DNA of 64,000 nt from an uncultured Candidatus Saccharibacteria bacterium. Its GTDB lineage: Bacteria > Patescibacteriota > Minisyncoccia > Phycocordibacterales > UBA9973. A model generated the notes under the pieces. It made no database searches. It saw only the letters and a program-made list of their open reading frames with translations, and was not told the origin of the DNA. A program made the position numbers and the translations under genes. Shown here piece after piece: positions 35,823 through 54,689 of the stretch. Position 1 is the first letter of the stretch. Every line of letters begins with the position of its first letter. Location: assembly GCA_964384645.1 (NCBI GenBank), contig CAYLKL010000003.1:9101-73100 (forward strand), read 5' to 3'.

Positions 35823-37526
35823 TTATTCTTTTATAAATCGCTTGGTCTTGTGACCAACAACTACAAAATAAAAACCAGGTTTAATTTTTGAAACATCAAT
35901 CACCTCTTCGATAGCACCGGCAGATTGTTCGATAACAACTTTACCTAATGGATCGATAACAGTAATGGTATCTCCTACTTTGATCTTTTCGATAACCAAA
36001 TGGTCGGTTGTCGGATTTGGGTAGATTTTTATATCACCCATATCATCCTGAAACGCTTCTGTACGGACTTCGGCATTATCAGTAACTTCTTCCTGTTTTT
36101 CATCCGCAGAAAGACGACAGCTTGCTCCAAGAGTAACATTGACCACAGTGGAAGTTCTAAGAACTCCATACTTGTTAGTAACGATAACCTTGTATTTACC
36201 GACAGTAGTAACAATTAAACTATTCCCGGTTGCTCCGGCAATAACGTTCCCATACTTCTTCCAAACATAAGTAGCGTTTGAATCATATGGAACAGAAAGA
36301 GTGACATCTTGTCCGGGACAGATAGTTGTACTACCAAGTATTGATACTGCAGCACTTGGCGCAGGATATGTGACACGAGTTAAAATCATGTCGTAAGTTG
36401 AACTCGGCATATATGCTCGTGAACGCATACCTACAAACACCCAACCTATACCTGCATTCCTTTGAGCAAGACCTGTAAAGACATAAGCTCCCGTACTATT
36501 AGTTGTTTCTTTCCTGACCCAAATTCTATTAAAATTTGGGGAGTACTCAGCACCATAAGCACCGGTTGTTGTATTGAAATTTCCAAACATTCCCGCAACA
36601 ACAAAACCAGCATAAGAGTCTTCCATCTGAACTATCGATCCAGCTTCTGTTGTCTGAAATATTCCTGATACATTACCAAGCAAATCAACACTGACAAAAG
36701 AAATAAGGCTAGTCGCAGCATCTTCTTTGAGTCCGACAAAAAGAGAATTTTCTCTTTCGCCAAAACACATTTCAGTTGCAGTGTAACCCAGTGGCAAAGC
36801 AGATGACCAAAGTGTACCCCCGGAAGCATCCAAACAATAAACCGTTTGAATAACATTCCAAGAAGGATCATATCCTCTTACAAGAACAAAAGAATTTCCA
36901 GCGATCGTTGGAGCAACCGAAGTTGCAGCAAAACCATTAAAAAATCTTGTCCAAGTAGGAACACCTAATAAATCAAGCTTTGTAACGAAAGCGTTTTGAC
37001 CCTGAGCAGGTATTCTGTCTGAGCTAAAACAAGATCCGGATAAAAATAAATTATTACCCAAAATCCTCAAGCTTATAGGATTATCGTGACCACTACCGGA
37101 GACATTTGTAAGAATCGTAGACCATAAAACATTTGCAGATGCATCTTTTTTATACAAAGAGATGTCTCCGTTATTTTGGTCTTTCGAATAAACAAAAAAT
37201 ACACCAGATTGATCAGAGACCGTCGCCATATCAGACGATACCGCAGACTGTGACACAAACGATGAATCAAACCCACGAATTGCACCGTTATTGTAAGTAG
37301 TACTCGAGACAACACCAATACTTCCAGTTCCTTTCGGAACTCTGAGCCCACCAACGTATGAGTTTGCACCCATTGTTGATATGACTGGATTAATGGTCGA
37401 TTCGGATGTATCTACTACAGCTTTTTTGAATGTAACGGCTGGAGATTGAGCATTTACTATTTCGGGGCAATATATACCCTGGATAAGTATAATCAATAAG
37501 ATCATAAGATATTTGATTGTTTTCAT
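35823..37526 (-). CDS. Secreted beta-rich protein with an Ig-like domain and a C-terminal Por_Secre_tail (T9SS-type sorting) domain
   Basis: Signal peptide. C-terminal DIKIYPNPTTDHLVIEKIKVGDTITVIDPLGKVVIEQSAGAIEEVIDVSKIKPGFYFVVVGHKTKRFIKE fits the T9SS CTD consensus (YPNP...I.D..G..V...........ID.S.L..G.Y.V.V....). Confidence 0.55.
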   Translation of the reverse strand: MKTIKYLMILLIILIQGIYCPEIVNAQSPAVTFKKAVVDTSESTINPVISTMGANSYVGGLRVPKGTGSIGVVSSTTYNNGAIRGFDSSFVSQSAVSSDMATVSDQSGVFFVYSKDQNNGDISLYKKDASANVLWSTILTNVSGSGHDNPISLRILGNNLFLSGSCFSSDRIPAQGQNAFVTKLDLLGVPTWTRFFNGFAATSVAPTIAGNSFVLVRGYDPSWNVIQTVYCLDASGGTLWSSALPLGYTATEMCFGERENSLFVGLKEDAATSLISFVSVDLLGNVSGIFQTTEAGSIVQMEDSYAGFVVAGMFGNFNTTTGAYGAEYSPNFNRIWVRKETTNSTGAYVFTGLAQRNAGIGWVFVGMRSRAYMPSSTYDMILTRVTYPAPSAAVSILGSTTICPGQDVTLSVPYDSNATYVWKKYGNVIAGATGNSLIVTTVGKYKVIVTNKYGVLRTSTVVNVTLGASCRLSADEKQEEVTDNAEVRTEAFQDDMGDIKIYPNPTTDHLVIEKIKVGDTITVIDPLGKVVIEQSAGAIEEVIDVSKIKPGFYFVVVGHKTKRFIKE

Positions 37527-39822: not shown

Positions 39823-42800
39823 TTAGAAAACTGAAACTCTGGTTATCGTAATTATTGGCGTTGAGGCCACTTCTGCACCCTGAGCGTTATATCCTTTTGC
39901 TTGATATTGAATATCTTTTGTTATAAGCCCTAACGGTCTCCATGTGCAGTTAAAATTAGGTGCAGAACTTGACGTACACTCTCTTGTCAATCCATTGTTA
40001 TACCTAAAATATTTTACCTTTGTTATTGGCCCGCCAACTGAAACTTTCATAGTGTAAACTTGGCCACTTTGTACAGTAAGGCCGTTTGTTGGGAAAACCC
40101 ATGAAATATAAGTTCCAGCTAAAACAGACACATTAACAGCAGTTGATGTCGAAGTATTGCCCACGGCGTCAATAGCGATAGCAGTTATTGTATGATTGCC
40201 ACCTGATGCCCCTGTAGTATCCCACGAAACACTATAAGGTGAAGTTGTGTCTATTCCAACAGACACACCGTCTACTTTGAATTCAACAGAAGCAATGCCT
40301 GAAGCGTCGGTTGCGTTTGCAGATAAGGTTACAGTTGTTCCTACTGCCACACTTGACCCGTCTATTGGTGCACTAATTGAAACAGTTGGAGGTGTTGTTT
40401 CTGGACCACAACTCCCCAAATTCAAATTAGAATTTTCAGTAAGTATGAATTTATCAAGTTGGAAGTTAGCTGAAAGTCCTGTGAATGTGAAAGTGTGCGC
40501 AGTGTTTGGGGTAACAGAAGAGAAAACGATAGGTGTACCTGCTTGGTTTTTGTTACACCAACCAAAAGTTGTTGAGTTTGAAGAAATTGTTTGAGCTGTA
40601 CCTGAATCTACTTTTACTGTAGCAGTTGATGTTCCAGTTGCTGATTTTGCGAAATACCATAGGTAATATGTTTTTGGAATAGAACCTGTTGCGTCTCTTG
40701 GTTCAAATTTGTAAGTTGTTGATCCAGTGCTTGGGTTTATGTAAGTTGTGAAGTTTGTGTAGTCTCCCGCTGGTGTACCTGCTGGAGTTGTAGTAGTTCT
40801 TGATGCAGAACCTGTGTCATAGACTTCTGCTTCAAAACTAAAGTCCTTTGACCAGTACCATGGGTGTGATGATTCGTGCCATGCGTCTAGTTGGTAAAAT
40901 ACTGGTGATGCTCCTGTTTTATCGTAGATGTAGGTGGAGCCTTGGCGTCTTGAATTAAATTTCAAAACTTCCCCAGAAAGATTTATGTTAACTGGTGCAA
41001 TTTCTGGAACAGCACCATCCATATTAGTATATTGATTTAAGTTAGTTGCAATTAAATATTTATTTACAGAATTATCTTTTCTAACAGTAGTAAATGCATC
41101 CATTCTTCCACTCTTGAAAGCGTAACCCGGAGTAGTACTAGAAGAAGCATAATCAAGAGGTAAATCACCAGTCATAACATTACTATTTTTATAGAAAGAA
41201 TCTACATAACTAAATACAGCTTGAGAATAAGAAGGTATCATATTCTGCCAAATTTTTTGAGCAGGCCAACCATCTTCACTTGTTCCAACTCGATTAAAAT
41301 ATCCAGTATGGAAAAATTCCGATCCCATATTGTTTACGTTTTTAGAAAGACCCAACCATTGACCAGGTGAAATATTTTGCTCAGCTTTCAAATCCCAACC
41401 TGGAGACATGTAAGCTCCGAAGAATTTATCTCCTGTTGCTTGTTGTCTGCCCATTACTTTTTGGATAAAGTACATACCGTTCCAAGCAGAAATTTTACTT
41501 CTCCAGTTAGATGGCCATCTTGGATAAAAGTCAGGCGTTGCATAGTATTGGCCATTTATAGGAGATTGCATTTTTCTTGCCTCACTCCACTTAAATCTTG
41601 TAGCTTCTTCGTATCCATCTACTGCGTACTCTAAATATTTTGAACCAGCAAGTCCTGGGATAGACAAAATTATATCTCTATATGTTTGATTGGCCATATC
41701 TGAAACGGTTTTCGCAACGTAAGACTGTGCATCCATTCCAGAAGAACTTATTGCAGAACTAACTGCTGGATCAGAATTTAGAGCATTTGTTTCGTACTTA
41801 ACTAAAATTTCACCATTCTCACTTATTAGATCAATTTTTGGTGCTGGCTTTGTTAATTGATTCACAACGCTATTAACCATACTTTTCATAGCATTTCCGT
41901 CTGGTGTGTATTGTGAAAACTGAGAACTAAGAGGTCTCCAAACTTTTGAAGTTGTTACGTTTCCGTTTATATCAATAAACTGACCAGAAGAATTTTGTAA
42001 ATAATACTGGTTTCCAAATCCTTGGTACCTCAAACAAGGCATATTAGATCCACCTCCACAAGTTGAAGCACCTGAAAGCTGAGCTCTTAAAATAACCAAC
42101 TGAGTTGGTAAAGTTGGATTTGAATTTGAATAACTTATCAATCCAGGTGTCCCTGAAACACCTGTGTCCAAGTTACTACTTGTAAGACTTGGAGCTAGAT
42201 CTAAATAATAATTCCATTTCTTTGCCATTTCACCCGCGATTGAAACTCCAGCCTGAACTTGAGCAGCTGAGTGCGTGTAAGTAAAATCTGTTGGTGTAAA
42301 GTGTGCTAAATAATCTAGGTCGTTCCAGTTAAAATTTCTAAGTAATGTATGCCCTGTTTTATATCTAGGCAATGGAACACTTTGAAGTTGAGTTAACACA
42401 GTTGGTGGTGTTGTTGAATATGTTGTGTAAGGAGAAGTTCCAAGCTGTGCTCCTGGCAAATAATCCATTGTGTCAAAAGATGACGAAACAGCTTGAGCAT
42501 TTGGGGTATTTGTAATATTTGTTACCCAAGAATAAGACTGTCCGTTTGTTATTGAATCTAAATAGTGCTGATATATTAGGTTACCAGGCAAATCATTACT
42601 CCATAGTGCAAATTGATCTATTGCACCAACATATCTTCTTTCGGCGGTACTGTTACCAAAAAACTTTATGTCACCGTTTGAAGATTTTATTTTATTAGTA
42701 TTCGCAACTGTTTTTGAAAAACCAGTTGGCAAAACTCCATCAACCCAAATTTCTTTTACTCCATTTGAGTATTTAAAAACCATATGATGCCAATTACCGT

Positions 42801-43362
42801 CGTTGTAATATGCTGGAGATTTTGGCCCAACTCCATCTAAGGCAATTTGGAAATCGTCTGAAACTGAATTTGTACCAGTAGTTCCAGTTGTTGAAAATCT
42901 AATATAAGGAACAGAAGTACTTGCTACAGGACTCTCAAATAAGATAGAAAAAGAATTATCAGTAGTTGTCATAAAATTTGAAACCAATATGTCGTCAGGT
43001 TTCCAAATAAATTCAACAGCAAAAGAAGAAGAAGCTGAAGTTGGTGTTTTCCCAATTGTTTGATAACAACCAGAACTGCTTGTATAGTTCAAATACTTCC
43101 CAACTGGACCATTTGATTGTTGAACAAATGGACAACTCGTCCCATTTGTAAATGTCGAAGATCCGATGGTCGCAGAGTTCCAAGGATTTCCTTCAAATTG
43201 CCAGTACGAATAAGGCTGAATCGGAGTTGTTACAGCGTTATACGTTGCAGCCAACTGTCCCCCAAAAAATCTAGATAAATTAAATGGAGACAAAAAATCT
43301 ATAACTAATAAAATTACTAATAATAATACAACTGATAAAATTAAACTCTTTTTCTTTTTCAT
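39823..43362 (-). CDS. Giant surface protein 1 (1179 aa): signal anchor, LamG/concanavalin-A-like domain, large conserved central domain, C-terminal Ig-like domains
   Basis: N-terminal TM. DGNWHHMVF LamG-type motif. C-terminal ...VTLSANATDASGIASVEFKVDGVSVGIDTTSPYSVSWDT Ig-like repeats. Paralog of the downstream gene. Confidence 0.6.
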   Translation of the reverse strand: MKKKKSLILSVVLLLVILLVIDFLSPFNLSRFFGGQLAATYNAVTTPIQPYSYWQFEGNPWNSATIGSSTFTNGTSCPFVQQSNGPVGKYLNYTSSSGCYQTIGKTPTSASSSFAVEFIWKPDDILVSNFMTTTDNSFSILFESPVASTSVPYIRFSTTGTTGTNSVSDDFQIALDGVGPKSPAYYNDGNWHHMVFKYSNGVKEIWVDGVLPTGFSKTVANTNKIKSSNGDIKFFGNSTAERRYVGAIDQFALWSNDLPGNLIYQHYLDSITNGQSYSWVTNITNTPNAQAVSSSFDTMDYLPGAQLGTSPYTTYSTTPPTVLTQLQSVPLPRYKTGHTLLRNFNWNDLDYLAHFTPTDFTYTHSAAQVQAGVSIAGEMAKKWNYYLDLAPSLTSSNLDTGVSGTPGLISYSNSNPTLPTQLVILRAQLSGASTCGGGSNMPCLRYQGFGNQYYLQNSSGQFIDINGNVTTSKVWRPLSSQFSQYTPDGNAMKSMVNSVVNQLTKPAPKIDLISENGEILVKYETNALNSDPAVSSAISSSGMDAQSYVAKTVSDMANQTYRDIILSIPGLAGSKYLEYAVDGYEEATRFKWSEARKMQSPINGQYYATPDFYPRWPSNWRSKISAWNGMYFIQKVMGRQQATGDKFFGAYMSPGWDLKAEQNISPGQWLGLSKNVNNMGSEFFHTGYFNRVGTSEDGWPAQKIWQNMIPSYSQAVFSYVDSFYKNSNVMTGDLPLDYASSSTTPGYAFKSGRMDAFTTVRKDNSVNKYLIATNLNQYTNMDGAVPEIAPVNINLSGEVLKFNSRRQGSTYIYDKTGASPVFYQLDAWHESSHPWYWSKDFSFEAEVYDTGSASRTTTTPAGTPAGDYTNFTTYINPSTGSTTYKFEPRDATGSIPKTYYLWYFAKSATGTSTATVKVDSGTAQTISSNSTTFGWCNKNQAGTPIVFSSVTPNTAHTFTFTGLSANFQLDKFILTENSNLNLGSCGPETTPPTVSISAPIDGSSVAVGTTVTLSANATDASGIASVEFKVDGVSVGIDTTSPYSVSWDTTGASGGNHTITAIAIDAVGNTSTSTAVNVSVLAGTYISWVFPTNGLTVQSGQVYTMKVSVGGPITKVKYFRYNNGLTRECTSSSAPNFNCTWRPLGLITKDIQYQAKGYNAQGAEVASTPIITITRVSVF
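40407..40951. repeat. Copy A of an intragenic duplicated block (identical to 45627-46171)
   Basis: 40432-40951 is 100% identical to 45652-46171 at a constant offset of 5220. Near-identity extends back to ~40261 / 45481. Confidence 0.9.
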
Positions 43363-43400
43363 AACTTATATAAGTATACAACTTTTGCAACTAAAAAAAT

Positions 43401-43430
43401 AAAAAACTCTGGATATCCAGAGTTTTTTAT
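43401..43430 (-). terminator. Intrinsic terminator after giant surface-protein gene 2
   Basis: Palindrome ctctggat|atccagag followed by TTTTTTT. Confidence 0.7.
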
Positions 43431-43440
43431 TTTTTTAGTT

Positions 43441-46400
43441 TTATTTAACTTTAATATTTTTTGTTGTTGTATTTCCGGCAACATCAACCGCTTGAACATT
43501 TATTGTAGAAGTTCCAAACCCCCACAACACAGACGGAACCGTAAAGCTGCAACTGTAAGAACTTGGTGGTGTTGTTGCACTTGTAAGTGTACATTTTGGA
43601 GTAGTAGATGTTGCACCCAAGAAGAATTTAACTTGCTTTACAGAAACATTATCTGTAACTGTTGCTATAAATGTTACAGGACTTGTGTTTGATACATTTG
43701 CGTTATTAGCGGGACTTGTGATTGAAACAGTCGGAGCAGTCGTGTCTGCCACTGTTGTTGAAATAGATACTGAAACAGCTGAAGAAGTAGAAGAATTTCC
43801 AGCATTGTCAGTTGCAATTGCAGTAATTGTATGACTTCCAGAAGTAAATCCTGTAGTGTTCCAAGAAATACTATACGGTGAAGTGGTTAATGTTGATCCA
43901 TATTGATTTCCATCAATATAAATTTTGACATTTTGTATACCAGAAGCATCACTTGCGTTCGCTGTTATTGTAGTATTAGATCCACCAGTCACTACAACTC
44001 CGTTAGCTGGACTTGTAATTGAAACAGTTGGAGCGGATGTATCAGTTCCCACTGTGATAGTTTCGGAAGTTGTATTATTTGCCTCATTTACTTCAGCAAA
44101 TCTATTAATATCATCAACAACCGCCGTTATGTTATGTGAACCGCCGGTCGCGTTCCATGCTGTAAATATACCAGTATCCGCTGACTGATTTGAACAATAA
44201 GCAGAGCCTGTACCCATACCAAGATTTACAGTTTTTCCAGCTCCAATTGAAGTTGTTTGAGCGTCTGAACAACCCAAAGCTACTCCATCCATCATAAACA
44301 TAACACCAACAACCATACCTTCTGGAGTGCCAACTGTTCCCTGGTTTTTAACAGTTGCAGTAAATGAAACATTTGCACCAACACTAGGACTTACAGGTGA
44401 CCAAACAATATCAGTCACAAGAACATCTGGTTGTCCTGTTGCATTTGAAACAGTCACTGAAACATTTGCTGAAGTTGCATTGTTTCCAGCTGCATCAAAT
44501 GCTTTTGCTTTTACTGTATGTGTTCCGTTTGAAAGAGTTGAACTATCTAATGTAACAGAATATGGAGCAGATGTATCAGTGGCAAAGGGTGATGTTGATG
44601 AATCAGTAAAGAACTGAACAGTAGTAACCCCAACATTATCACTCGCATTTGCACTAACGGTAACTAAACCTGAAACAGTTGCACTAGGTGTTGGTGCGGT
44701 AACTGAAACAGTTGGTGCAGTTGTGTCTGCGGGTGGTGTTGTTACGTTGTTTACCGTAACACCAAAGGCTGTAGTTGTTGTTGAGTTTGAACCTGGAACA
44801 GTAACTTTGTCGTAAGCTTTTGCTGTAATTTGATAACTACCGTTTGCAACACCTGTTGTATTCCAAGAACAAGAAAATGTTCCTGATGTTTGCCCCGTAG
44901 CTGTTGCTGTACAAATTAGAACTGTTCCTCTGTAAAACTCTATATGATTTATTCCAGTTGTGTCTGTTGCAGAAGCTGTCATTGTAACAGTGCCAGAAAG
45001 TGTTGCTCCAGAAACTGGAGAAGTTACCGTCGTCGAAGGACCCGCAGTATCAATATTTATTGATACTTGATTTGAAGCTGATGAAAAATTACCAGAACTA
45101 TCTTTTGATTTAACAATATACGTATGACTAGCATTTGCTGACGGTGTGTCTGTATAACCAAGGTTTGTTACAGCGCTTGTATTAATAGCAGTTGTAGAAC
45201 CATCTCTATATATATAGTAACCTTCAAGACCTGAACCAGAATCAGTTGATCCACCCCAAGATAAAACCGCACTGTTTGATTGTCTTGTAACAGAAAGTGT
45301 TGTTGGTGTTGTTGGAGCAACTGTGTCAGGAAGAGAAACTGTAATACTAACTGAAGAGTTTGCAGTATTACCAACAGTGTCAGTAGCTGTCGCTGTTATT
45401 TGATGTGAGCCATTCGTAACACCCGTTAGTGACCACGAAACACTATAAGGTAAAGTTGTGTCTATTCCAACAGATACACCGTCTACTTTGAATTCAACAG
45501 AAGCAATGCCTGAAGCGTCGGTTGCGTTAGCCGACAGAGTCGCTGGTCCAGTAGAAATTGTTGCTCCAGTTGTTGGCGCAGTAACTGAAACAGTTGGTGC
45601 TATTGTGTCAGTTGGAGTAGTTCCACCACAACTCCCCAAATTCAAATTAGCATTTTCAGTAAGTATGAATTTATCAAGTTGGAAGTTAGCTGAAAGTCCT
45701 GTGAATGTGAAAGTGTGCGCAGTGTTTGGGGTAACAGAAGAGAAAACGATAGGTGTACCTGCTTGGTTTTTGTTACACCAACCAAAAGTTGTTGAGTTTG
45801 AAGAAATTGTTTGAGCTGTACCTGAATCTACTTTTACTGTAGCAGTTGATGTTCCAGTTGCTGATTTTGCGAAATACCATAGGTAATATGTTTTTGGAAT
45901 AGAACCTGTTGCGTCTCTTGGTTCAAATTTGTAAGTTGTTGATCCAGTGCTTGGGTTTATGTAAGTTGTGAAGTTTGTGTAGTCTCCCGCTGGTGTACCT
46001 GCTGGAGTTGTAGTAGTTCTTGATGCAGAACCTGTGTCATAGACTTCTGCTTCAAAACTAAAGTCCTTTGACCAGTACCATGGGTGTGATGATTCGTGCC
46101 ATGCGTCTAGTTGGTAAAATACTGGTGATGCTCCTGTTTTATCGTAGATGTAGGTGGAGCCTTGGCGTCTTACTTTGAATTTCAAATTTTCTGTTGGTGT
46201 AACTGTTGTTGCAGGATATGTATCACCACCAAAAGATATGTCAGCTAGTGATTCTTCTGCGGCATTACCTTGATAATTTGACCAAGGGTTTTCCATACCT
46301 GTTATGACAAATCTATTAGCACTGTTTTGCTTTCTGGCAACAACAAGTTGGCCAGGATTTCCAGTATAAAATCTAAATCCAGGATTTGAGTCTGGCGGGT

Positions 46401-48618
46401 AAACCAAACGTGTTGTATCTCCACGCATCATTTTTCCATTTTTAAGAATATCTTCGTAATAACTTGTTACACCTTGTGCATATGAAGGAGTTGATGCTTG
46501 CCATACATAGTTTTCAGGATAAAGGTTGTCTGCAATGTTTGGTTCTATATTGAAAACACCTGGATAGAAAAATTCAGCACCTGTTGCAGCTAAAACTTTT
46601 GTAAAACCAAGCATTTGAGCTGGTCGAACATTGTTTCTTTCAACTCTATCCCAACCAGCAGATATAAATGGAGAATATAGATTATCTCCAGCTGCTAATT
46701 CCCCGTTTCTACTATTTACAACCCACTGCCATCCGTGCCAAGCACTACTCCAATATTTCCAGTTCCATGGATATCGAATATAAAAATCAGGAGTAGAGTA
46801 ATACATACCATTTATTGGATCATTTACTTTTCTTGCTTCTTCCCATTTAAATTCATATATATGTTCACCTTCAATAGCGTACTCTGTGAAAGTTGAATTT
46901 GAAACAGCTTGAATACTTTTTATTTTATCAACATAAGCTCTTTCGTTTGTATAAAATTGTCTAGCTACATAAGTATACGCATCAAGTCCAGATGCATTTT
47001 TTGCAGCCAAAACAGCTGGGTCATTATTAACTATATTTGTTGTACTTTCTGCTGTATACGGAGGGAAAACTTCACCGTTATCATTAATGATATCGATCGC
47101 ACGTGTTGGATATTGAGCAACTCTATTTGGTATAGAATTTAAAACAGTTTGAATGTGCGACTTTGCAGCTTCTCCGTCTGGAGCGTAACTTGAAAGATAA
47201 GTTGAGACAGGCCTCCATCTTTTATCGGTTGTTACATTTCCATTAGGGTCCAAAAATTGCCCTGATGAATTTTGTAAATAATGAGTACTTGGTAAATTTT
47301 GAGAAGAGATACAAGATCTTGTACAAGCTGAAGTATAAAGTTGAGCTCTAAAAGATGTTGCGGCTATAGGAATAAAATTTGCACCAGGTGTAATGTATTG
47401 CTGTTCATTTGCCAAAGATTGATCTGCCGCAGAAAAACCATTTGAACTTCCTGTGTTATTCGTAACTTGAATATGGTAGTTCCATTTTGTAGCAAGTTGT
47501 CTGTTTATGTCCTTTGACTTTGCGTGGTTTGTTGTAGTGTTCCCAACTGAAGTACCTGAAATACTTGATGAAGCTAAGTTTGAAAGATAATCATATGCCA
47601 ACCAGTTACCGACATTCCTTATTAAGGTATTTGAAGATTTATAACGAGGCAAAGGATAAGTTTCAAGCTGATCAATAACAGAAACATTTACTCCTGGTGT
47701 TTGTCCTGATGAAGAAGAAAGATTTGTTCCTGCCATAAAATCAAGAGGGTTGTAAACTCCAGCAACTGAATCAGCTGATGGAACATTTGTGATTGCTGTT
47801 GTAGTTGAATAGCTAAGGCCTGCACTTGCATTATTGTGGTGTTCTAAAATTAAGTTTGGTGGCAAAGATTTGTCATACAGCGCAATTTGATCTAGCGAAC
47901 AATTACATTGAGTGTACTCTGCTGAATTAAGGCTCGAGAATTTTACAGCACCTGTTGTAGATACTGCTGTGTTAAACGAATACCCAGCTGGAAGTTGTCC
48001 GTCAATCCAAAATTGTACTTTTTGTGAAGAAGAAGTTGGGTCATATTGAATAACAAAATGGTGCCAATTTCCATCAGCAATATATGCTAAAGATTTTCTA
48101 CCAGCCTCATCTAGGTTGATATAAGAATCAACGCCATTAAGTACAAGTTTCCACCTAGCCATACTACCGTTTGGATTTCCTCCAACTGGTGTCTGGAACT
48201 CAAGCTTAAAATTAGAACCAAATGAGAAAATTGTTCCAGCTTCAAAAGTTTTTGAAGGCTTAAACAAAAATTCAACAGCCCAACCACTCGCAGAAGGAGT
48301 TATGTTGCCTGCTGTATTACCAGACCCAGATAGATCTATGTAATTTCCAACCTTTCCGCCTGTTTTTGGTGTCCAAGTAGAAGTTTCTGTTCCTCCGAAT
48401 TGCTGAGATCCAATAGTTGGAGTTTTTTGACCAGCAGTAGTTGTGTCAGAGAACTGCCAATAACTTACTGGAGTGATTGGACTTGTGACAGCTGTATAAG
48501 TGGCAGCCTTTTGGCTATTGCTTAATATTTGCGGATCAATAGGAGAAATTACCTTTGAAAACAAAAAAACCGCAATCACAAAGAATGATAATAATAATGC
48601 CTTATTTATTTTTTTCAT
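43441..48618 (-). CDS. Giant surface protein 2 (1725 aa): signal anchor, LamG-like domain, conserved central domain, multiple Ig-like domains, FN3 domain, CARDB domain
   Basis: DGNWHHFVI. FN3-like LSWGGSTDSGSGLEGYYIYRDG. CARDB-like DVLVTDIVWSPVSPSVGANVSFTATVKNQG...EVNEANN. At least 6 Ig-like repeats (TAPTVSVTAPT...). Shares a ~200-aa identical segment with gene 1. Confidence 0.6.
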   Translation of the reverse strand: MKKINKALLLSFFVIAVFLFSKVISPIDPQILSNSQKAATYTAVTSPITPVSYWQFSDTTTAGQKTPTIGSQQFGGTETSTWTPKTGGKVGNYIDLSGSGNTAGNITPSASGWAVEFLFKPSKTFEAGTIFSFGSNFKLEFQTPVGGNPNGSMARWKLVLNGVDSYINLDEAGRKSLAYIADGNWHHFVIQYDPTSSSQKVQFWIDGQLPAGYSFNTAVSTTGAVKFSSLNSAEYTQCNCSLDQIALYDKSLPPNLILEHHNNASAGLSYSTTTAITNVPSADSVAGVYNPLDFMAGTNLSSSSGQTPGVNVSVIDQLETYPLPRYKSSNTLIRNVGNWLAYDYLSNLASSSISGTSVGNTTTNHAKSKDINRQLATKWNYHIQVTNNTGSSNGFSAADQSLANEQQYITPGANFIPIAATSFRAQLYTSACTRSCISSQNLPSTHYLQNSSGQFLDPNGNVTTDKRWRPVSTYLSSYAPDGEAAKSHIQTVLNSIPNRVAQYPTRAIDIINDNGEVFPPYTAESTTNIVNNDPAVLAAKNASGLDAYTYVARQFYTNERAYVDKIKSIQAVSNSTFTEYAIEGEHIYEFKWEEARKVNDPINGMYYSTPDFYIRYPWNWKYWSSAWHGWQWVVNSRNGELAAGDNLYSPFISAGWDRVERNNVRPAQMLGFTKVLAATGAEFFYPGVFNIEPNIADNLYPENYVWQASTPSYAQGVTSYYEDILKNGKMMRGDTTRLVYPPDSNPGFRFYTGNPGQLVVARKQNSANRFVITGMENPWSNYQGNAAEESLADISFGGDTYPATTVTPTENLKFKVRRQGSTYIYDKTGASPVFYQLDAWHESSHPWYWSKDFSFEAEVYDTGSASRTTTTPAGTPAGDYTNFTTYINPSTGSTTYKFEPRDATGSIPKTYYLWYFAKSATGTSTATVKVDSGTAQTISSNSTTFGWCNKNQAGTPIVFSSVTPNTAHTFTFTGLSANFQLDKFILTENANLNLGSCGGTTPTDTIAPTVSVTAPTTGATISTGPATLSANATDASGIASVEFKVDGVSVGIDTTLPYSVSWSLTGVTNGSHQITATATDTVGNTANSSVSITVSLPDTVAPTTPTTLSVTRQSNSAVLSWGGSTDSGSGLEGYYIYRDGSTTAINTSAVTNLGYTDTPSANASHTYIVKSKDSSGNFSSASNQVSINIDTAGPSTTVTSPVSGATLSGTVTMTASATDTTGINHIEFYRGTVLICTATATGQTSGTFSCSWNTTGVANGSYQITAKAYDKVTVPGSNSTTTTAFGVTVNNVTTPPADTTAPTVSVTAPTPSATVSGLVTVSANASDNVGVTTVQFFTDSSTSPFATDTSAPYSVTLDSSTLSNGTHTVKAKAFDAAGNNATSANVSVTVSNATGQPDVLVTDIVWSPVSPSVGANVSFTATVKNQGTVGTPEGMVVGVMFMMDGVALGCSDAQTTSIGAGKTVNLGMGTGSAYCSNQSADTGIFTAWNATGGSHNITAVVDDINRFAEVNEANNTTSETITVGTDTSAPTVSITSPANGVVVTGGSNTTITANASDASGIQNVKIYIDGNQYGSTLTTSPYSISWNTTGFTSGSHTITAIATDNAGNSSTSSAVSVSISTTVADTTAPTVSITSPANNANVSNTSPVTFIATVTDNVSVKQVKFFLGATSTTPKCTLTSATTPPSSYSCSFTVPSVLWGFGTSTINVQAVDVAGNTTTKNIKVK
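45627..46171. repeat. Copy B of the intragenic duplicated block (identical to 40407-40951)
   Basis: See copy A. Antisense ORFs 40247..40594 and 45458..45814 in the ORF track are near-identical artefacts of this duplication. Confidence 0.9.
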
Positions 48619-48730
48619 AATAGAAACTTATTTTTTAATAATAATTAATAAACACCAAAAACAAATGCCACCCTAATTTATTTATATTATATATGTTTTT
48701 TGGTTAAATTTTCAGACAAATGTGGATAAT

Positions 48731-50413
48731 TTAATGTATATCAAGTATTCTAATTCTAATTTTTTCATAACCTCCAAAAAAACTTTTTTCCACCAATCCA
48801 ACCATAGTAATGAAATCACCTTTTTTCATATCTATTTTGTAATCTTCAGGTTTTTTAAAAAAGGCAATGGCTTTAATTGCTTGCCCGTTAATACTAATCT
48901 CAAGCTCTGTATGGTTTTTTTCTTTACCAAAAGTCTTTACACCCAAAATAAGAGCATCTTTTAGTTCAAAAACAGGCTTTGGATTACCCATCCCAAAAGG
49001 GGCGAACTTTTCCATACTCGAAACACCGTTTCTATTAACAAAAAAACTGTCGAATTCTATAAAATTTTCATTTTCTTCATTATTCTGACTACTTGAACTT
49101 AAAAAAGCCTTCTCAAGTAACGCTGGCAGGTTATGTATTTCACCATCTTTAACAGAAAATCCACCTGCTTTTTTGTGGCCACCTATATCTATAAAGGAAT
49201 CTACTGTATTTTTCATTATTTCAACTACGTCAGCATTTCCAAAAGACCTACAAGACCCCTTAATAACCTCTTTTTCTCCATGAGTCCTACCCCAAACAAA
49301 TGTAGTCTTTTTATATTCTTCACATAACTTACTGGCCAAAAGACCTAAAAGCCCAGGACTCCATGTCGGACTACCGACACAAATGACATTTTCGAAACCT
49401 CTAGTTTTTATGCTTTTATTGGCTTCTTTCATCATAGTTGCGACGATTATCTTTCTTTTGTCAGAAAGTTTTGCTAAATCCTCAGACAAAATATCTGCTG
49501 AATCTTTATCTTCCGCACTTAAAAGCTGATATGCCTTGTAAGCCTCATCCATTCGGGAAGCCGCATTTATCTTTGGGGCAATTGAGAAATTTATATCGTC
49601 TTCTGTGATATTTCTAATATTTATCTTTGATCTATCCGCCAAGGCTTTGAGTCCGAGACGTTTTCCTTTTCTCATAACCATAAGGCCGTATTTTGCCAAA
49701 ACCCTATTTTCATCAATTAAAGGAACTTGGTCAGCAATAGTAGAAAGTGCCACCAAATCAAGTAACCATTTTTCTTTACCGCGTGGATATTTAAAATACT
49801 CATGGTATTTATCCAAAAAACCTAATATAACTTTGTAGGTTATACCTGTTCCACAAAGTTCTCGGAATGGATATTTAGAATCTTTTAACTTTGGGTTTAT
49901 TAGGGCGAAAGGCTTTGGTAAAACATCCGGCGCTTCGTGATGATCAATAACAATAACGTTTACTCCATTTGCTTCAGCAAAATCAATCGCCTCTCTAGCC
50001 GTCGTCCCTAAATCTATAGTTATCAGCAAGGTTGTTTTTAAATCTATGATTTTCTCAAGAATCCCTTGGTGTAGTCCGTAACCTAAAGTATTTCGATCAG
50101 GTATGTAAACTTCTAAATGTCTAACACCTAAACTTCTTAAAAATTCAGAAAGTATTGTTGCCCCAGGTATTCCATCACAATCATAATCTGAATATATAGC
50201 TATTTTCTCACCCGCCGTAATGGCACTAAAAATTCTCTCAATCGCTTTTTCGAGATCTGGTAACAGTTTAGGATCATGCAAATCCCTTATATAATCAGGA
50301 TTTAAAAACTTTTCTTTTTCAATTTCTGTTTTAATACCTATTTTTTCAAATAGTTTGTCGAAAACATTTTCCATCTTGGATTCATTAGGGGTCTTTTGCG
50401 TAAGCATGGTCAA
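48731..50413 (-). CDS. recJ: Single-stranded-DNA-specific exonuclease RecJ
   Basis: DHH motifs SDYDCDGIPG, ITIDLGT and VIVIDHHE, plus DHHA1 GGHKKAGG. The true start may be the internal MENVFDKL. Confidence 0.85.
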   Translation of the reverse strand: MTMLTQKTPNESKMENVFDKLFEKIGIKTEIEKEKFLNPDYIRDLHDPKLLPDLEKAIERIFSAITAGEKIAIYSDYDCDGIPGATILSEFLRSLGVRHLEVYIPDRNTLGYGLHQGILEKIIDLKTTLLITIDLGTTAREAIDFAEANGVNVIVIDHHEAPDVLPKPFALINPKLKDSKYPFRELCGTGITYKVILGFLDKYHEYFKYPRGKEKWLLDLVALSTIADQVPLIDENRVLAKYGLMVMRKGKRLGLKALADRSKINIRNITEDDINFSIAPKINAASRMDEAYKAYQLLSAEDKDSADILSEDLAKLSDKRKIIVATMMKEANKSIKTRGFENVICVGSPTWSPGLLGLLASKLCEEYKKTTFVWGRTHGEKEVIKGSCRSFGNADVVEIMKNTVDSFIDIGGHKKAGGFSVKDGEIHNLPALLEKAFLSSSSQNNEENENFIEFDSFFVNRNGVSSMEKFAPFGMGNPKPVFELKDALILGVKTFGKEKNHTELEISINGQAIKAIAFFKKPEDYKIDMKKGDFITMVGLVEKSFFGGYEKIRIRILDIH

Positions 50414-50415
50414 AA

Positions 50416-50826
50416 TTGTATCATGGAAACATGAATGACTGTATTTTTTGCAAAATAATCAAAGGAGAAATTCCAAGCTATAAAATTTATGAAGATGAAT
50501 CTTTTATTTCGTTCTTAGATATCAATCCAGTTTCTAAAGGACACGCCCTTATAATTCCTAAAAGTCACATTGAATGGATGCACGAGGCGGATGATAGTTT
50601 GATAAAAGAGATATTTGTATTAACTAAAAAAATGATGTTAAACATAAAGGAAAAGCTTCCGTGTGATTATGTGCAAATTGGTGTAGTCGGCAAAGATGTT
50701 CCACATTTTCATGTTCATCTAATACCTAGATCTTTAGAAGAGGCTGTTACTCAAACAACGAGACCACATGCTCCATACATGTCTCAGGAAGAAATAGATG
50801 AAATAGTAAATAAAATAAAAATGTAA
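50416..50826 (+). CDS. HIT-family (histidine triad) nucleotide hydrolase
   Basis: CIFCKII and the histidine triad HFHVHLIP. The start is possibly the internal ATG at 50431. Confidence 0.85.
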   Translation: MYHGNMNDCIFCKIIKGEIPSYKIYEDESFISFLDINPVSKGHALIIPKSHIEWMHEADDSLIKEIFVLTKKMMLNIKEKLPCDYVQIGVVGKDVPHFHVHLIPRSLEEAVTQTTRPHAPYMSQEEIDEIVNKIKM

Positions 50827-50830
50827 AAGA

Positions 50831-50860
50831 AAAAAAGCGACCTTGTGAGGTCGCTTTTTG
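50831..50860. terminator. Bidirectional intrinsic terminator (after HIT and after the small minus-strand ORF)
   Basis: Stem gcgacct-tgtg-aggtcgc with an A-run and a T-run. Confidence 0.75.
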
Positions 50861-50878
50861 TTAAGTCACAGCAGAGCT

Positions 50879-51013
50879 TTATTTTACCCAGGCAAAGTAT
50901 TTACCTGTTTCAGCTTTACTTTTAAAAGATACTCCTGTAAGTCCGAGGAAGAGGATAAGCACGAAGCCGATTACATAAACATTCTTGTTTGCTCTTTGAC
51001 GGATAATTTCCAT
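50879..51013 (-). CDS. Small single-TM protein (44 aa), unannotated sORF with its own consensus promoter
   Basis: Minus-strand ATG at 51013 and TAA at 50879-50881, encoding MEIIRQRANKNVYVIGFVLILFLGLTGVSFKSKAETGKYFAWVK. It is bracketed by a perfect promoter and the 50831-50860 terminator, and is below the ORF-track length cut-off. Confidence 0.4.
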   Translation of the reverse strand: MEIIRQRANKNVYVIGFVLILFLGLTGVSFKSKAETGKYFAWVK

Positions 51014-51056
51014 GTTTTTTTAGTTTTTAATTGGTTTAATTATTTAACTTTCTTTA

Positions 51057-51084
51057 ATTATACCATACATAGAGTTATTGTCAA
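51057..51084 (-). promoter_or_regulatory. Consensus sigma70 promoter (TTGACA-16-TATAAT) on the minus strand
   Basis: Minus strand reads TTGACA (51079-51084), a 16-nt spacer, then TATAAT (51057-51062). It points at the small ORF ~45 nt downstream. Confidence 0.55.
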
Positions 51085-51115
51085 GTCTCATTTACGGACA
51101 CTTATATAGACGAAT

Positions 51116-52243
51116 TTATGCCTTTTTTATTACAGCTTCTATTCCGACGAGAGTACTAAAGGCCAAAAAATCAAGTGTGGCACCCCCGCCAGTCGAAACA
51201 AACCTATATTTTTCAAGTTTATTTTCCTTTTCAAGGATAGCAAGCGTGTCTCCACCACCCAAATAAACATCCCCCGACACATCTGCCAAAAATGAAAGTA
51301 AATCATTCGTTGTTTTATCGAAACCGTTCTCGTAATTGCCTAGAGGTCCGTTCCAAAGTATCGTTTTTGAAACTCGAGCAAGGTCAAAAATCTGTTCCAT
51401 GCTTTTGTGCCCGACATCTACAATATTTTCATCTTCTGTTACTTCATTTAAAAGTCTTTCTCTTGTGCCGTTTGGTCCAGTCACAACTACGTCTACTGGA
51501 AGATGTAAATTTTCTCTTCCCAAAAAAGGCTGAGCGAGCTCTGGATTATCAGCCAAAGATATTCCTGTTTCAAAACCTTGTGCTTCAAAAAAGGAATTCG
51601 CTAAAGCACCGGCCACGTAAACATTGTCTGCTCGATCTAAAAAATTTTTCAGTAACGGAACTTTAGTGCTAATTTTTGCGCCACCTGAAATAAACAAAAA
51701 GGGGTGTTCTGGATTTTCAATAATTTTATTTAAATTCTCTATTTCGTTCCACATACCAAAACCAAAATAAGATGGTAAATATTTTGGAAGACCCACTACT
51801 GAAGCATGTGCTCGGTGTGAAACTGAAAAAGCATCATTTACATAGAAATCTGCTAGGCTGGCGAGATCTTTTGCAAAAGTTTCATCATTTGATTCTTCCA
51901 TTTTGTTTCGCCGAATATTTTCAACTAAAACAATTTCATTTTCAACTATACATTTCTTTATACTTTCGACTTCTGGCTTGTCACAGAAAGATGCTGTTAT
52001 ATTTTTTTGTTTTAACAAATCTATAAAAGGCAGTAGTGAGTCCTCTGTCTTACCTCGATGGCTTAAAATTATTATTTTGCATCCTTTTTCTTTTAGAAAT
52101 TCTATTGTTTTAATACTTTGTAAAAATCTCTGACTATTTATCATCGGAGCCCCTGGGACATTGTAATCAACTCGCAAAAGAACAATGTCGCCACGATGAC
52201 ACTGAAGATTTTCTATATTATGTTGATTTATTTTATCCTGCAT
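51116..52243 (-). CDS. pgk: Phosphoglycerate kinase
   Basis: VLLRVDYNVP and the hinge ...ISGGAKISTK... and GGGDT pattern. 375 aa. Confidence 0.9.
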   Translation of the reverse strand: MQDKINQHNIENLQCHRGDIVLLRVDYNVPGAPMINSQRFLQSIKTIEFLKEKGCKIIILSHRGKTEDSLLPFIDLLKQKNITASFCDKPEVESIKKCIVENEIVLVENIRRNKMEESNDETFAKDLASLADFYVNDAFSVSHRAHASVVGLPKYLPSYFGFGMWNEIENLNKIIENPEHPFLFISGGAKISTKVPLLKNFLDRADNVYVAGALANSFFEAQGFETGISLADNPELAQPFLGRENLHLPVDVVVTGPNGTRERLLNEVTEDENIVDVGHKSMEQIFDLARVSKTILWNGPLGNYENGFDKTTNDLLSFLADVSGDVYLGGGDTLAILEKENKLEKYRFVSTGGGATLDFLAFSTLVGIEAVIKKA

Positions 52244-52979
52244 AAGCGATAATTTTTAAGAATTTTTTTGTATCCAAACTAGCTCTACCCACCAAAACAC
52301 CGTCTATTTCTTTTGCTTCTACAAAATTTTTAGCATTTACTTCGTCCACCGATCCGCCGTACAAAACCTTTGAAACTTTTTCTGACTCAAAAACTTCTTT
52401 AATTGTTTTTTTAATAAACAAAGACATCTCACGAGCTTCGTCGAGCGTTGCCTCTCGGACGGCTTCACTTCCAATTGCCCAAATAGGCTCATACGCAACA
52501 ATGACTTTGCTTACTTTGTTTGCTGGAACCAAAGACAAATCTATACTTAACTGATTTTTAATAAATTTAAAAAATTCTCCAGTATTATCTCTTTTTGATT
52601 CACCGACGCACAATATAGGAGTAATTCCTTCAGACAAAAGACTTTCTATTTTTCTAGCAATCAATTCGTCTGACTCTCCTCTTTTTCTTGATTCAGAATG
52701 CCCAACAATTCCATACTTAGCGCCTAGAGTTTTTAAATGTTTCGGTGAAAGTGTGCCAGTGAAAGACCCAGAAGAATCAAGACCATTATCCTGTGAACCC
52801 GTTACCAAGCTCCCTTTAAGTCCATAAAACAAGGATTGAAACAAAGGTGGTGGAAAAATAATTACTTCAGAATTTTTAAATTTTCTTAGATTTTTATTTA
52901 AATCAGTAAAAAGTTTCTTCGCGGTTTTGGGGTCATTTGGATTTGTTTTCCAATTTCCGGCAATTATTTTTTTTATCAT
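52233..52979 (-). CDS. tpiA: Triosephosphate isomerase
   Basis: IIAGNWKTN, GHSESR and VAYEPIWAIGS active-site motifs. Overlaps pgk by 11 nt. Confidence 0.9.
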   Translation of the reverse strand: MIKKIIAGNWKTNPNDPKTAKKLFTDLNKNLRKFKNSEVIIFPPPLFQSLFYGLKGSLVTGSQDNGLDSSGSFTGTLSPKHLKTLGAKYGIVGHSESRKRGESDELIARKIESLLSEGITPILCVGESKRDNTGEFFKFIKNQLSIDLSLVPANKVSKVIVAYEPIWAIGSEAVREATLDEAREMSLFIKKTIKEVFESEKVSKVLYGGSVDEVNAKNFVEAKEIDGVLVGRASLDTKKFLKIIAYAG

Positions 52980-53107
52980 TACCTAATTTTACCTTAACTT
53001 TCAAATTCTTTCCATTTAGTTAACATTGCATATTTTAAGTATTGCTAAAAAAATAATTTGTTGAGCTAAGCTCCTTAATAAAAGACTGTAAACTGTTTTA
53101 ATGGGAA

Positions 53108-53149: not shown

Positions 53150-54634
53150 TTATGGTGTTTCTTGCCAGCTAAATATAACGATACCGTTTCCCCCTTTACA
53201 TCCACTTCCTAGATTTGGAAGAAATGGATTAACTGCACCTGCACCACCACCACCCGAACTAATTCCTCCGCTTGTACAGCTTATCGAGCCCACACCTCCT
53301 TTTCCGGCATCCCTACTACCATCGTCGTTAAAGCTAGAAGCATTACCCCCAAGACCACCATTACCACTAGTACTACCAGAATGGACAACAGATCCATAAC
53401 TTAGCAGATCACCTGTTGATGTGTCTATCAAATAAGGCCACGCTGTGTACTTACCACTAGCTCCAGCTACTCCATTTTGAACATTTGCCCCTACTGTAAA
53501 AGACCCTCCTGTTCCACCAGCACCAGTTCCCGTTGAAGAAGATGGTGTATGTGGATTTACTATTATTTTTCCACCTAGTCCACCTTTTCCACCTTCAGCT
53601 TGAGCTACAACTGTAGATTGAGGTAAGGGACCTATAACCTTAGACTCTCCTCCGTTTTGTCCATCAGAAGCACCGTAACCAGATGGTGGACTATTAAAGT
53701 TTAAAATACTTGATACCCAACCACTAGGTGAGCCATAGAAAGAACCACTAACACCGTATCCTTTTTTAGTACCAGCACTACCGCCTGCACCAACTTGAAC
53801 ACTGTATTGCAAAGAAAGCTGTGTACCGATGCTATTAAATTCAGAGTAAGCTCCTCCACCACCACCTCCACCACCAGAGTTTATTTGACATTTTGCAGCT
53901 TGAGGTCCGGCATCATTAATAGTTCCAGGAGCACCCGATGTTCCAGAACAACCAGTAGAAAGATTATTTCCTTGACTAAATTGATAAGCGAGACCTCCCC
54001 CACCTCCTCCACCAGCACCGTTTATACTTACCCTAAGACTTCCCGCTACATATTTTACTGGTGTAATAAATATATTATTACTACAAGAACCTAACGGAGA
54101 ACTACAATCACCACTTGAGATTTGTGATCCAGAAGAATTAATAGAGTAAGTTTGATATTTAGTTGTGTTAACTACATTGCTTTCACTATTATCAGAAGAA
54201 CTTGTACAGCCCGGATCATTTGGATAGTCGACTAGTCCGTCACTATCATTATCCACGCCATCACTACACTCTGAAGTAGAAGTTGTTACCCCACAAAGAT
54301 AAAGTGTTCCGTTTGACTGAGCACAAACATGAGTATCGCCTGAATTTGTGTGTTGCAAGGTTGCAACCTTAAGTGTTCCAGTTCCAGGATCAGTAGTGTA
54401 ATCACCAACTGTTGTATCTCCAACCAAAAGTGATCCTCCAAAAACAGCAAGAGAATTTAACCCAAGTCCAGAATTTTTTATTTGGTTTGTTGTTCCAACA
54501 TTTACTGGACCCTGAGCATTATTACCAGGAGGCGGACCAGCTGGCGCAACCCAACTACCGGCATAAGAAATACCCGCTGACAATACTAGACCTATAACTA
54601 TTATTTTTAATCCATTTATAACTTGCTGTTTCAT
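53150..54634 (-). CDS. Secreted Gly-rich protein with a Cys-bracketed Asp-rich (TSP3/dockerin-like Ca-binding-type) motif
   Basis: Signal peptide. CSDGVDNDSDGLVDYPNDPGC. Two GGGGGGG runs and long GxGG low-complexity tracts. 494 aa. Confidence 0.5.
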   Translation of the reverse strand: MKQQVINGLKIIVIGLVLSAGISYAGSWVAPAGPPPGNNAQGPVNVGTTNQIKNSGLGLNSLAVFGGSLLVGDTTVGDYTTDPGTGTLKVATLQHTNSGDTHVCAQSNGTLYLCGVTTSTSECSDGVDNDSDGLVDYPNDPGCTSSSDNSESNVVNTTKYQTYSINSSGSQISSGDCSSPLGSCSNNIFITPVKYVAGSLRVSINGAGGGGGGGLAYQFSQGNNLSTGCSGTSGAPGTINDAGPQAAKCQINSGGGGGGGGAYSEFNSIGTQLSLQYSVQVGAGGSAGTKKGYGVSGSFYGSPSGWVSSILNFNSPPSGYGASDGQNGGESKVIGPLPQSTVVAQAEGGKGGLGGKIIVNPHTPSSSTGTGAGGTGGSFTVGANVQNGVAGASGKYTAWPYLIDTSTGDLLSYGSVVHSGSTSGNGGLGGNASSFNDDGSRDAGKGGVGSISCTSGGISSGGGGAGAVNPFLPNLGSGCKGGNGIVIFSWQETP

Positions 54635-54689
54635 ATGTTTATAATTTTACCACGCTAATAATAATTTTTATTAATAATTGTTTATAATT

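Follow-up and report, generated by a model that had tools for sequence, protein, structure and literature searches.

In the 64,000-nucleotide window that we analysed (contig CAYLKL010000003.1 of GenBank assembly GCA_964384645.1, from an uncultured Candidatus Saccharibacteria bacterium), two adjacent genes, here called A and B, encode large proteins that are only distantly related outside one internal domain, which is identical almost to the last nucleotide. Our analysis indicates that the segment encoding this domain is probably kept identical by recurrent intrachromosomal gene conversion, which would represent concerted evolution restricted to one domain. The features of concerted evolution that can be read from sequence are all present, namely a sharply bounded tract, homogenised synonymous sites, and copies that group by genome inside the tract (over 55 nucleotides (nt)) and by orthology outside it. 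A preliminary description of this locus, made from the sequence alone, had proposed gene conversion between the two paralogues, and this proposal is now well supported by the identical synonymous sites found in otherwise diverged genes.

The longest exact run between A and B covers 520 nt (40432-40951 in A, 45652-46171 in B) at a constant offset of 5220; this run, together with the two minus-strand open reading frames (ORFs) of 1179 and 1725 amino acids (aa), was reproduced as first described. A single mismatch at 40431, where A carries TCT (Ser) and B carries GCT (Ala), interrupts the match, which then resumes to 40405, resulting in a near-perfect tract of 547 nt (block I) with 180 of 181 codons identical. 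Through domain mapping from an AlphaFold2 model, we assigned to this tract the last two strands of a beta-sandwich (RRQGSTYIYDKT..VFYQ), the whole of a jelly roll resembling a carbohydrate-binding module (CBM), and the start of a linker (LNLGSCG). Near-identity had been described as extending back to about 40261 in A and 45481 in B. Similarity does continue in that direction, but as a mosaic: the next stretch of linker is ~55% identical between the genes, with indels, and is followed by a second patch (block II) that is 96% identical at an offset of 5211. Block II spans the N-terminal half of the first Big_7 domain, after which similarity decays. Outside these patches, a codon-aware alignment showed 17-62% aa and 37-64% nt identity per 40-codon window, and A and B elsewhere are ~38% identical in aa and ~50% in nt. 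Self-comparison of the whole window revealed no other long repeats.

Over the LamG-like and central parts, A and B are 38% identical, as compared with 44% between A and the Bacteroidota homologue P0002 and 40% between B and the Bacteroidota homologue P0052; A and B are as diverged as proteins of different phyla, yet one probable ligand-binding domain is identical. In a neighbour-joining tree of the heads, A grouped with P0045, P0046 and P0068, and a separate branch was formed by B and its orthologue P0063, whereas in the tree of the block A and B are sisters. Since the heads lie in different clades and the blocks are sisters, the identity island is not a remnant of a recent duplication. The two genes are arranged in tandem on the same strand, as paralogues that diverged anciently; the family to which they belong, of secreted or anchored proteins, is uncharacterised.

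No exact copy of gene A was found in the public collections searched. A relative with both genes is the Candidatus Paceibacterota metagenome-assembled genome (MAG) GCA_035438585.1, in which the A orthologue (P0001, 93% identical) lies on contig DAORIO010000041.1 and the B orthologue (P0063) on contig DAORIO010000040.1, each locus being 84.5% identical in nt to its window counterpart. Both contigs stop inside the block. The two contigs share their final 55 nt exactly, and upstream of these they differ as much as A does from B; the edge of the relative's block falls within 2 nt of the window's (the identical stretch there being 57 nt in the window). Compared with the window block, this 55-mer has three differing positions, which are common to both copies of the relative (GATPVF as against GASPVF in the window); at every variable site the two window copies agree, the two copies of the relative agree, and the genomes differ. 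These shared states imply that homogenisation took place after the lineages split, or independently in each of them. The drift expected since that split is ~5%, or ~30 differences per 547 nt, as against the one observed in the window.

A usual largest k of metaSPAdes is 55, and a terminal 55-mer entered from two flanks is the mark of a de Bruijn-graph assembler (k=55) stopping at a repeat. Two further contigs break within the block. One, L062 (JGI Ga0154020_10008882), is collinear with window positions 46049-53022, covering the head of B and the genes upstream, and ends 123 nt into the block; the other, L042 (CAYOVR010000099.1), is syntenic with the tail of A, RNase H and ComEC, and begins 53 nt before the exact run ends. 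L042 retains the A-type linker, which indicates an old 3' edge of block I as well. Breaks within the block are seen in three or four related assemblies, bearing out the earlier remark that it is a likely hotspot of assembly collapse, and because short-read MAGs of this lineage break here, the A and B genes are usually truncated in databases (as in P0001 and P0063). We also considered the stop of homologue P0013 at RRQGSTYIYDKT as a repeat break, but the contig runs on past it and the stop is overlapped by a second ORF; it was therefore read as a frameshift and rejected as evidence.

The explanation that comes closest to ours is a single, very recent conversion or domain replacement confined to the window genome, with no long-term homogenisation; the preliminary description had likewise spoken of a recent event. 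A single difference in 547 nt is what such an event would leave, and other tandem pairs of the family have no identity island: none was found in L009, L011, L013-L016, L019 or L068, or by self-comparison of 40+ related loci including L067 and L068, and tandem paralogues of the family occur in several Bacteroidota and candidate phyla radiation (CPR) genomes. However, the relative, at 84.5% nt identity, has the same 55-mer with the same edge and carries three substitutions of its own in both copies, which requires conversion in both lineages or after their split, and copies left unconverted since that split should have accumulated some thirty differences. A one-off event is therefore unlikely, and the word recent does not fit orthologues that share block-specific substitutions and edge. 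Strong purifying selection on an essential domain, acting without recombination, has more to build on at the protein level, given that the first 20-75 residues of the block hold the most conserved motif of the family (Q807 G808 S809, all invariant) and that between lineages the block changes at ~0.3-0.5 times the rate of its flanks; on this measure the block is not fast-evolving. Codon usage decides the matter. Of the conserved residues with degenerate codons, only 53% are encoded by the same codon in the flanks of A and B, but in the block the two genes agree at 176 of 176 such codons (P ~1e-49 even given a perfectly conserved protein), and because every synonymous site is identical, purifying selection alone is excluded by these counts as the cause of the identity. 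Against 14 outgroup homologues, moreover, the block of A is 37-50% identical, with 25-42% in its second half, and the central domain 28-46%, strong conservation being confined to the first ~20 residues of the block (RRQGSTYIYDKT..PVFYQLD.WH). The block is thus not unusually conserved across the family, and the possibility raised at the outset, that it is equally conserved in all homologues, fails, since it differs from outgroups as the rest of the protein does. The same domain in the L009 pair is 75% identical in aa, as a slower rate predicts. We consider selection without recombination to have practically no chance of being correct.

Assembly could in principle have produced the island, either by pasting one block into both genes or by collapsing two similar blocks to a consensus. 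Assemblers err at repeats longer than k, and the related short-read assemblies break exactly at this place. Nevertheless, both block junctions are in frame on either side and restore the domain order present in every family member; the window sequence contains no Ns; and sequences that are ~55% identical cannot be made identical by an assembler, which could hide a few single-nucleotide polymorphisms at most. An independent assembly of the relative also enters a shared stretch of at least 55 nt from both A-type and B-type flanks, which shows a genuine two-copy repeat in the lineage. An artefact is accordingly very improbable. Diversity-generating retroelements (DGRs) are common in CPR genomes and act on ligand-binding domains close to the C-termini of surface proteins, so that a template and variable repeat pair, or a part of some mobile cassette, might be envisaged. 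A scan of 22 ORFs between 25 and 64 kb, however, detected no reverse transcriptase, integrase or transposase. Each copy forms an in-frame coding part of its paralogue, the repeat measures 547 nt as against ~100-150 nt for DGR repeats, the only difference is T/G and thus not adenine-specific, and the domain is predicted to be a CBM-like jelly roll and not a C-type-lectin fold. It is hardly conceivable that either kind of element lies behind the island.

Under recurrent gene conversion, the two direct repeats, 5.2 kb apart, would recombine homologously and non-reciprocally, probably through a RecA-type pathway, and the 547-nt segment would thereby be homogenised; block II, ~100 nt in the first Ig domain, would be kept near-identical in the same way. 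The 5' edge would remain stable because it lies on the most conserved motif of the family (RRQGSTYIYDKT), presumably the sole place where nucleotide similarity has been retained; the flanks beyond the motif, at ~50% nt identity, would be too diverged for heteroduplex extension, leaving the tracts self-confined. The 3' edge adjoins a linker that differs by indels. Block II, the slightly less perfect of the two patches, may be a tract of its own that is older, or may reflect patchy repair of a single heteroduplex.

Several observations weigh against this explanation or limit it. The test of concerted evolution in the relative extends over 55 nt and three variable sites only, and protein searches for the remainder of the GCA_035438585.1 block, using the block and the C-terminal tail of A, returned distant (<=64%) or generic Big_7 matches. 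The ends of the L062 and L042 contigs are compatible with repeat breaks and are not diagnostic alone. If a single consensus node of the repeat was threaded through both copies during assembly, the 100% identity of the block may be a slight overstatement. How conversion began between segments that were then only ~55-60% identical is not accounted for. Finally, the direction of conversion and the origin of the block are ambiguous from trees and best matches: the best match to the block outside the pair is P0086 at 56%, whose head is not close to either gene and falls outside both head clades, followed by P0045 and P0046 of the A clade.

Concerted evolution by gene conversion is known from tufA/tufB in enterobacteria and from the outer-membrane-protein genes babA/babB and sabA/sabB of Helicobacter pylori, in which identical segments stand beside diverged ones. 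A and B share with these systems a sharp island of nucleotide identity, synonymous sites included, within diverged paralogues of one genome; copies that track each other within a genome and differ between genomes; and an identical segment that is a possible substrate for more recombination. In contrast to them, A and B are adjacent direct repeats that are extremely diverged outside the island (38% aa identity), the island covers neither the ends nor the full length of the gene but a single internal domain that probably binds carbohydrate, and the organism is an uncultured member of the Paceibacterota (CPR), with no evident role in expression switching or antigenic variation. The phenomenon itself, classical concerted evolution, is therefore already known; what is new is the CPR setting, the restriction to a single internal domain of very old paralogues, and a boundary that has been kept at 15% divergence. 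Our literature searches on gene conversion in surface proteins of CPR/Patescibacteria found nothing specific. Although a specialist would not be surprised, A and B are a clean case, with an internal control, of concerted evolution restricted to one domain in a reduced CPR genome, and show homologous recombination at work in shaping the surface-protein repertoire of these symbionts.

An exhaustive HMMER search with aa 1-990 of A returned 662 representatives of 50%-identity clusters, 321 of them at E<1e-30, so that the family comprises at least 321 clusters at this threshold. Most homologues are Bacteroidota proteins ending in a sorting domain of the type IX secretion system (T9SS). Many are only ~930-960 aa long, which indicates that LamG, central domain and block form a conserved three-part core with the block as its C-terminal domain. 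The Bacteroidota T9SS homologues (e.g. P0003-P0012) share this core with A and B at 31-40% identity over ~950 aa, but end in Por_Secre_tail and CHU_C/PKD/fn3 repeats, not in Big_7 and CARDB, and their tandem paralogues lack an identity island.

In gene A, an N-terminal signal/anchor is followed by a LamG-like domain, a TIM-barrel-like central domain, a beta-sandwich, the CBM6/35-like domain, one Big_7 Ig domain and an unannotated C-terminal beta region (Table 1). Gene B has the same core architecture and then a longer stalk (Big_7 x5, Big_13, CARDB). The Pfam and NCBIfam models recognised the stalks, with a single Big_7 in A (aa 992-1061), five in B, and Big_13 and CARDB in B, plus a weak N-terminal LamG-type signal at the level of a Pentaxin/Laminin_G_3 match; sub-threshold matches to Ca_tandemer and OmpL47 were also obtained. 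Of the domains initially described, the Ig-like repeats (Big_7) and CARDB were thus recovered, LamG only as a weak match, while fn3 gave no Pfam match above threshold in B. Across residues ~290-985, no Pfam or NCBIfam model matched A, B or 16 homologues, and a sequence profile search against the PDB matched the Ig/fn3 repeats only (e.g. GhpA, 9flp), leaving the core without matches.

Table 1 Features of genes A and B in the window
Feature	Position	Strand	Description
Gene A	39823..43362	-	1179 aa; ORF, Pfam, AlphaFold2 model, fold matches
Block II, A copy	40222..40323	-	102 nt; LSANATDASGIASVEFKVDGVSVGIDTT.PYSVSW
Linker of A, diverged, Pro/Thr-rich	40324..40404	-	81 nt; PETTPPTVSISAPIDGSSVAVGTTV; A-specific; kept in A orthologue L042
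Block I, A copy	40405..40951	-	547 nt; identical to B copy except 40431; A aa 804/805-985
TIM-barrel-like central domain of A	41176..42348	-	~aa 339-729; without Pfam/NCBIfam model
Hairpin in B-A spacer (78 nt)	43393..43436	.	perfect, flanking A/T runs; AAAAAACTCTGGATATCCAGAGTTTTTT; pattern match
Gene B	43441..48618	-	1725 aa; ORF, Pfam, alignment with A
Block II, B copy	45433..45534	-	pairs with A 40222-40323
Linker of B, diverged	45535..45624	-	90 nt; GTTPTDTIAPTVSVTAPTTGATISTGPA; net 9 nt longer than A linker
Block I, B copy	45625..46171	-	B aa 816/817-997; exact run 45652-46171

The AlphaFold2 model of A aa 290-990 (pLDDT 80, pTM 0.87) consists of an alpha/beta barrel (~aa 339-729), a beta-sandwich (~756-824) and a second beta-sandwich (~839-979). 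The barrel shows weak similarity to glycoside hydrolase (GH) family GH42 and, at lower scores, to the barrels of GH29, GH164, GH35 and GH18, a similarity that is generic for TIM barrels, and no GH family profile from Pfam, NCBIfam or PDB sequences matched over aa 290-800. Residues of the central domain that are invariant in the family include E518, D531, W620, D645, W656, E682 (near-invariant) and W705. The candidate catalytic residues are E518, in an N-G-E motif just after a strand, and E682, in a G-[AS]-E-F-F motif within a strand, both putative by analogy with clan GH-A. The block has a predicted beta-jelly-roll fold superposable on CBM6/35/36, without a curated CBM profile match (Pfam/NCBIfam) over it in A, B or the 16 homologues, and the CBM-like domain would bind carbohydrate. 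The central barrel may be glycoside-hydrolase-like at the level of fold, and the ~500-aa central domain together with the CBM-like domain (window ~40393-42495, A aa 290-990) may constitute an undescribed glycoside-hydrolase-like family. Among the nearest known proteins are modular GHs that carry an appended CBM6, CBM35 or CBM36 module, such as Xyn30D (GH30+CBM35, 4qaw), the GH26-CBM35 mannanase (3zm8) and the GH42 beta-galactosidases (3tts, 1kwk). Unlike these, A and B have no GH or CBM match in Pfam or NCBIfam, the likeness of their barrel is generic and their catalytic residues are guesses, and they add an N-terminal LamG-like domain and a long Ig stalk.

Such a core, by its predicted fold, resembles a modular glycoside hydrolase with a CBM, and the label adhesin-like, used in the preliminary description, is doubtful. 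Neither A nor B contains a recognised adhesin domain or anchoring signal (LPXTG, autotransporter, RTX core), their Ig-like repeats are generic, and neither C-terminus shows an LPXTG; the LamG, CBM or Ig domains might nonetheless mediate adhesion. The identity of the CBM-like domain may either be selected (one target, two heads) or be a neutral by-product. One tentative and rather unlikely scenario is that this domain is a shared docking module for one glycan, possibly on the surface of a host or partner cell of this episymbiotic CPR bacterium, that conversion has been favoured because it gives two enzymes with different heads one common, co-evolving binding specificity, and that the 547-nt repeat also serves as a hinge for head/tail swaps and copy-number change, such as B-head/A-tail deletions and three-gene arrays. 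No chimeric or copy-number variants of A and B were seen, and the earlier idea of cassette exchange that varies the surface repertoire found no support.

Other signs of recombination were observed in related loci. Between L062 (3148-10122) and the window (46049-53022), identity alternates along 7 kb through 71-82%, 98-100%, 76-88% and 96-100%, a mosaic that suggests frequent homologous recombination between diverged lineages of the population. Because of this alternation, recombination is evidently active in the lineage of the window. In the same contig, the B orthologue carries a 1-nt deletion at L062 8552, corresponding to window 47620 (TTAATAAGG to TTAATAGG), which lies outside long homopolymers and causes a frameshift ~330 codons in. 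This copy may be a pseudogene or a variant, or the deletion may stem from faulty assembly. We also examined the Paceibacterota tandem pair L009 as a candidate for older conversion, given a step in identity at the same motif (N-terminal part 51% aa, block 75% aa). This candidate was rejected, since the step fits the slower rate of the block: the ratio of block to head divergence is 0.51 in the L009 pair and 0.47 between the orthologues L009b and L012. In the same pair (L009 7373-17787, JAGOQQ010000001.1), the first 50 codons, encoding the signal/anchor, are 88% identical in aa and 83% in nt, as against ~50% in other parts of the head, and this 5'-end patch may be a small conversion patch.

With regard to expression, the hairpin in the spacer between B and A looks terminator-like, which suggests that A and B are probably separate transcription units. 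Antisense ORFs overlie both copies of the block (115 aa, 40247-40594 (+); 118 aa, 45458-45814 (+)); they are near-duplicates because they lie on the repeat, and most likely are not genes.

In the neighbourhood, a 567-aa ORF at 35823-37526 (-) carries a Por_Secre_tail domain (PF18962, 41 bits, cutoff 27) and has a syntenic homologue in L042 (~3162-4637). T9SS is regarded as a Bacteroidota-type system; here the tail occurs in a Paceibacterota (CPR) context. Most non-CPR homologues of A and B also come from Bacteroidota and end in this tail, a hint of gene flow between that phylum and the CPR lineage of the window. Two adjacent ORFs of 494 and 817 aa (53150-57143 (-)) had no Pfam match at E<=1e-5. 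The region at 28838-33345 (-) is rich in envelope and surface proteins, and contains a 699-aa ORF with Big_7 and CarboxypepD_reg and an 802-aa ORF with a Peptidase_S74 intramolecular-chaperone domain, as in phage tail-spike and endosialidase proteins.

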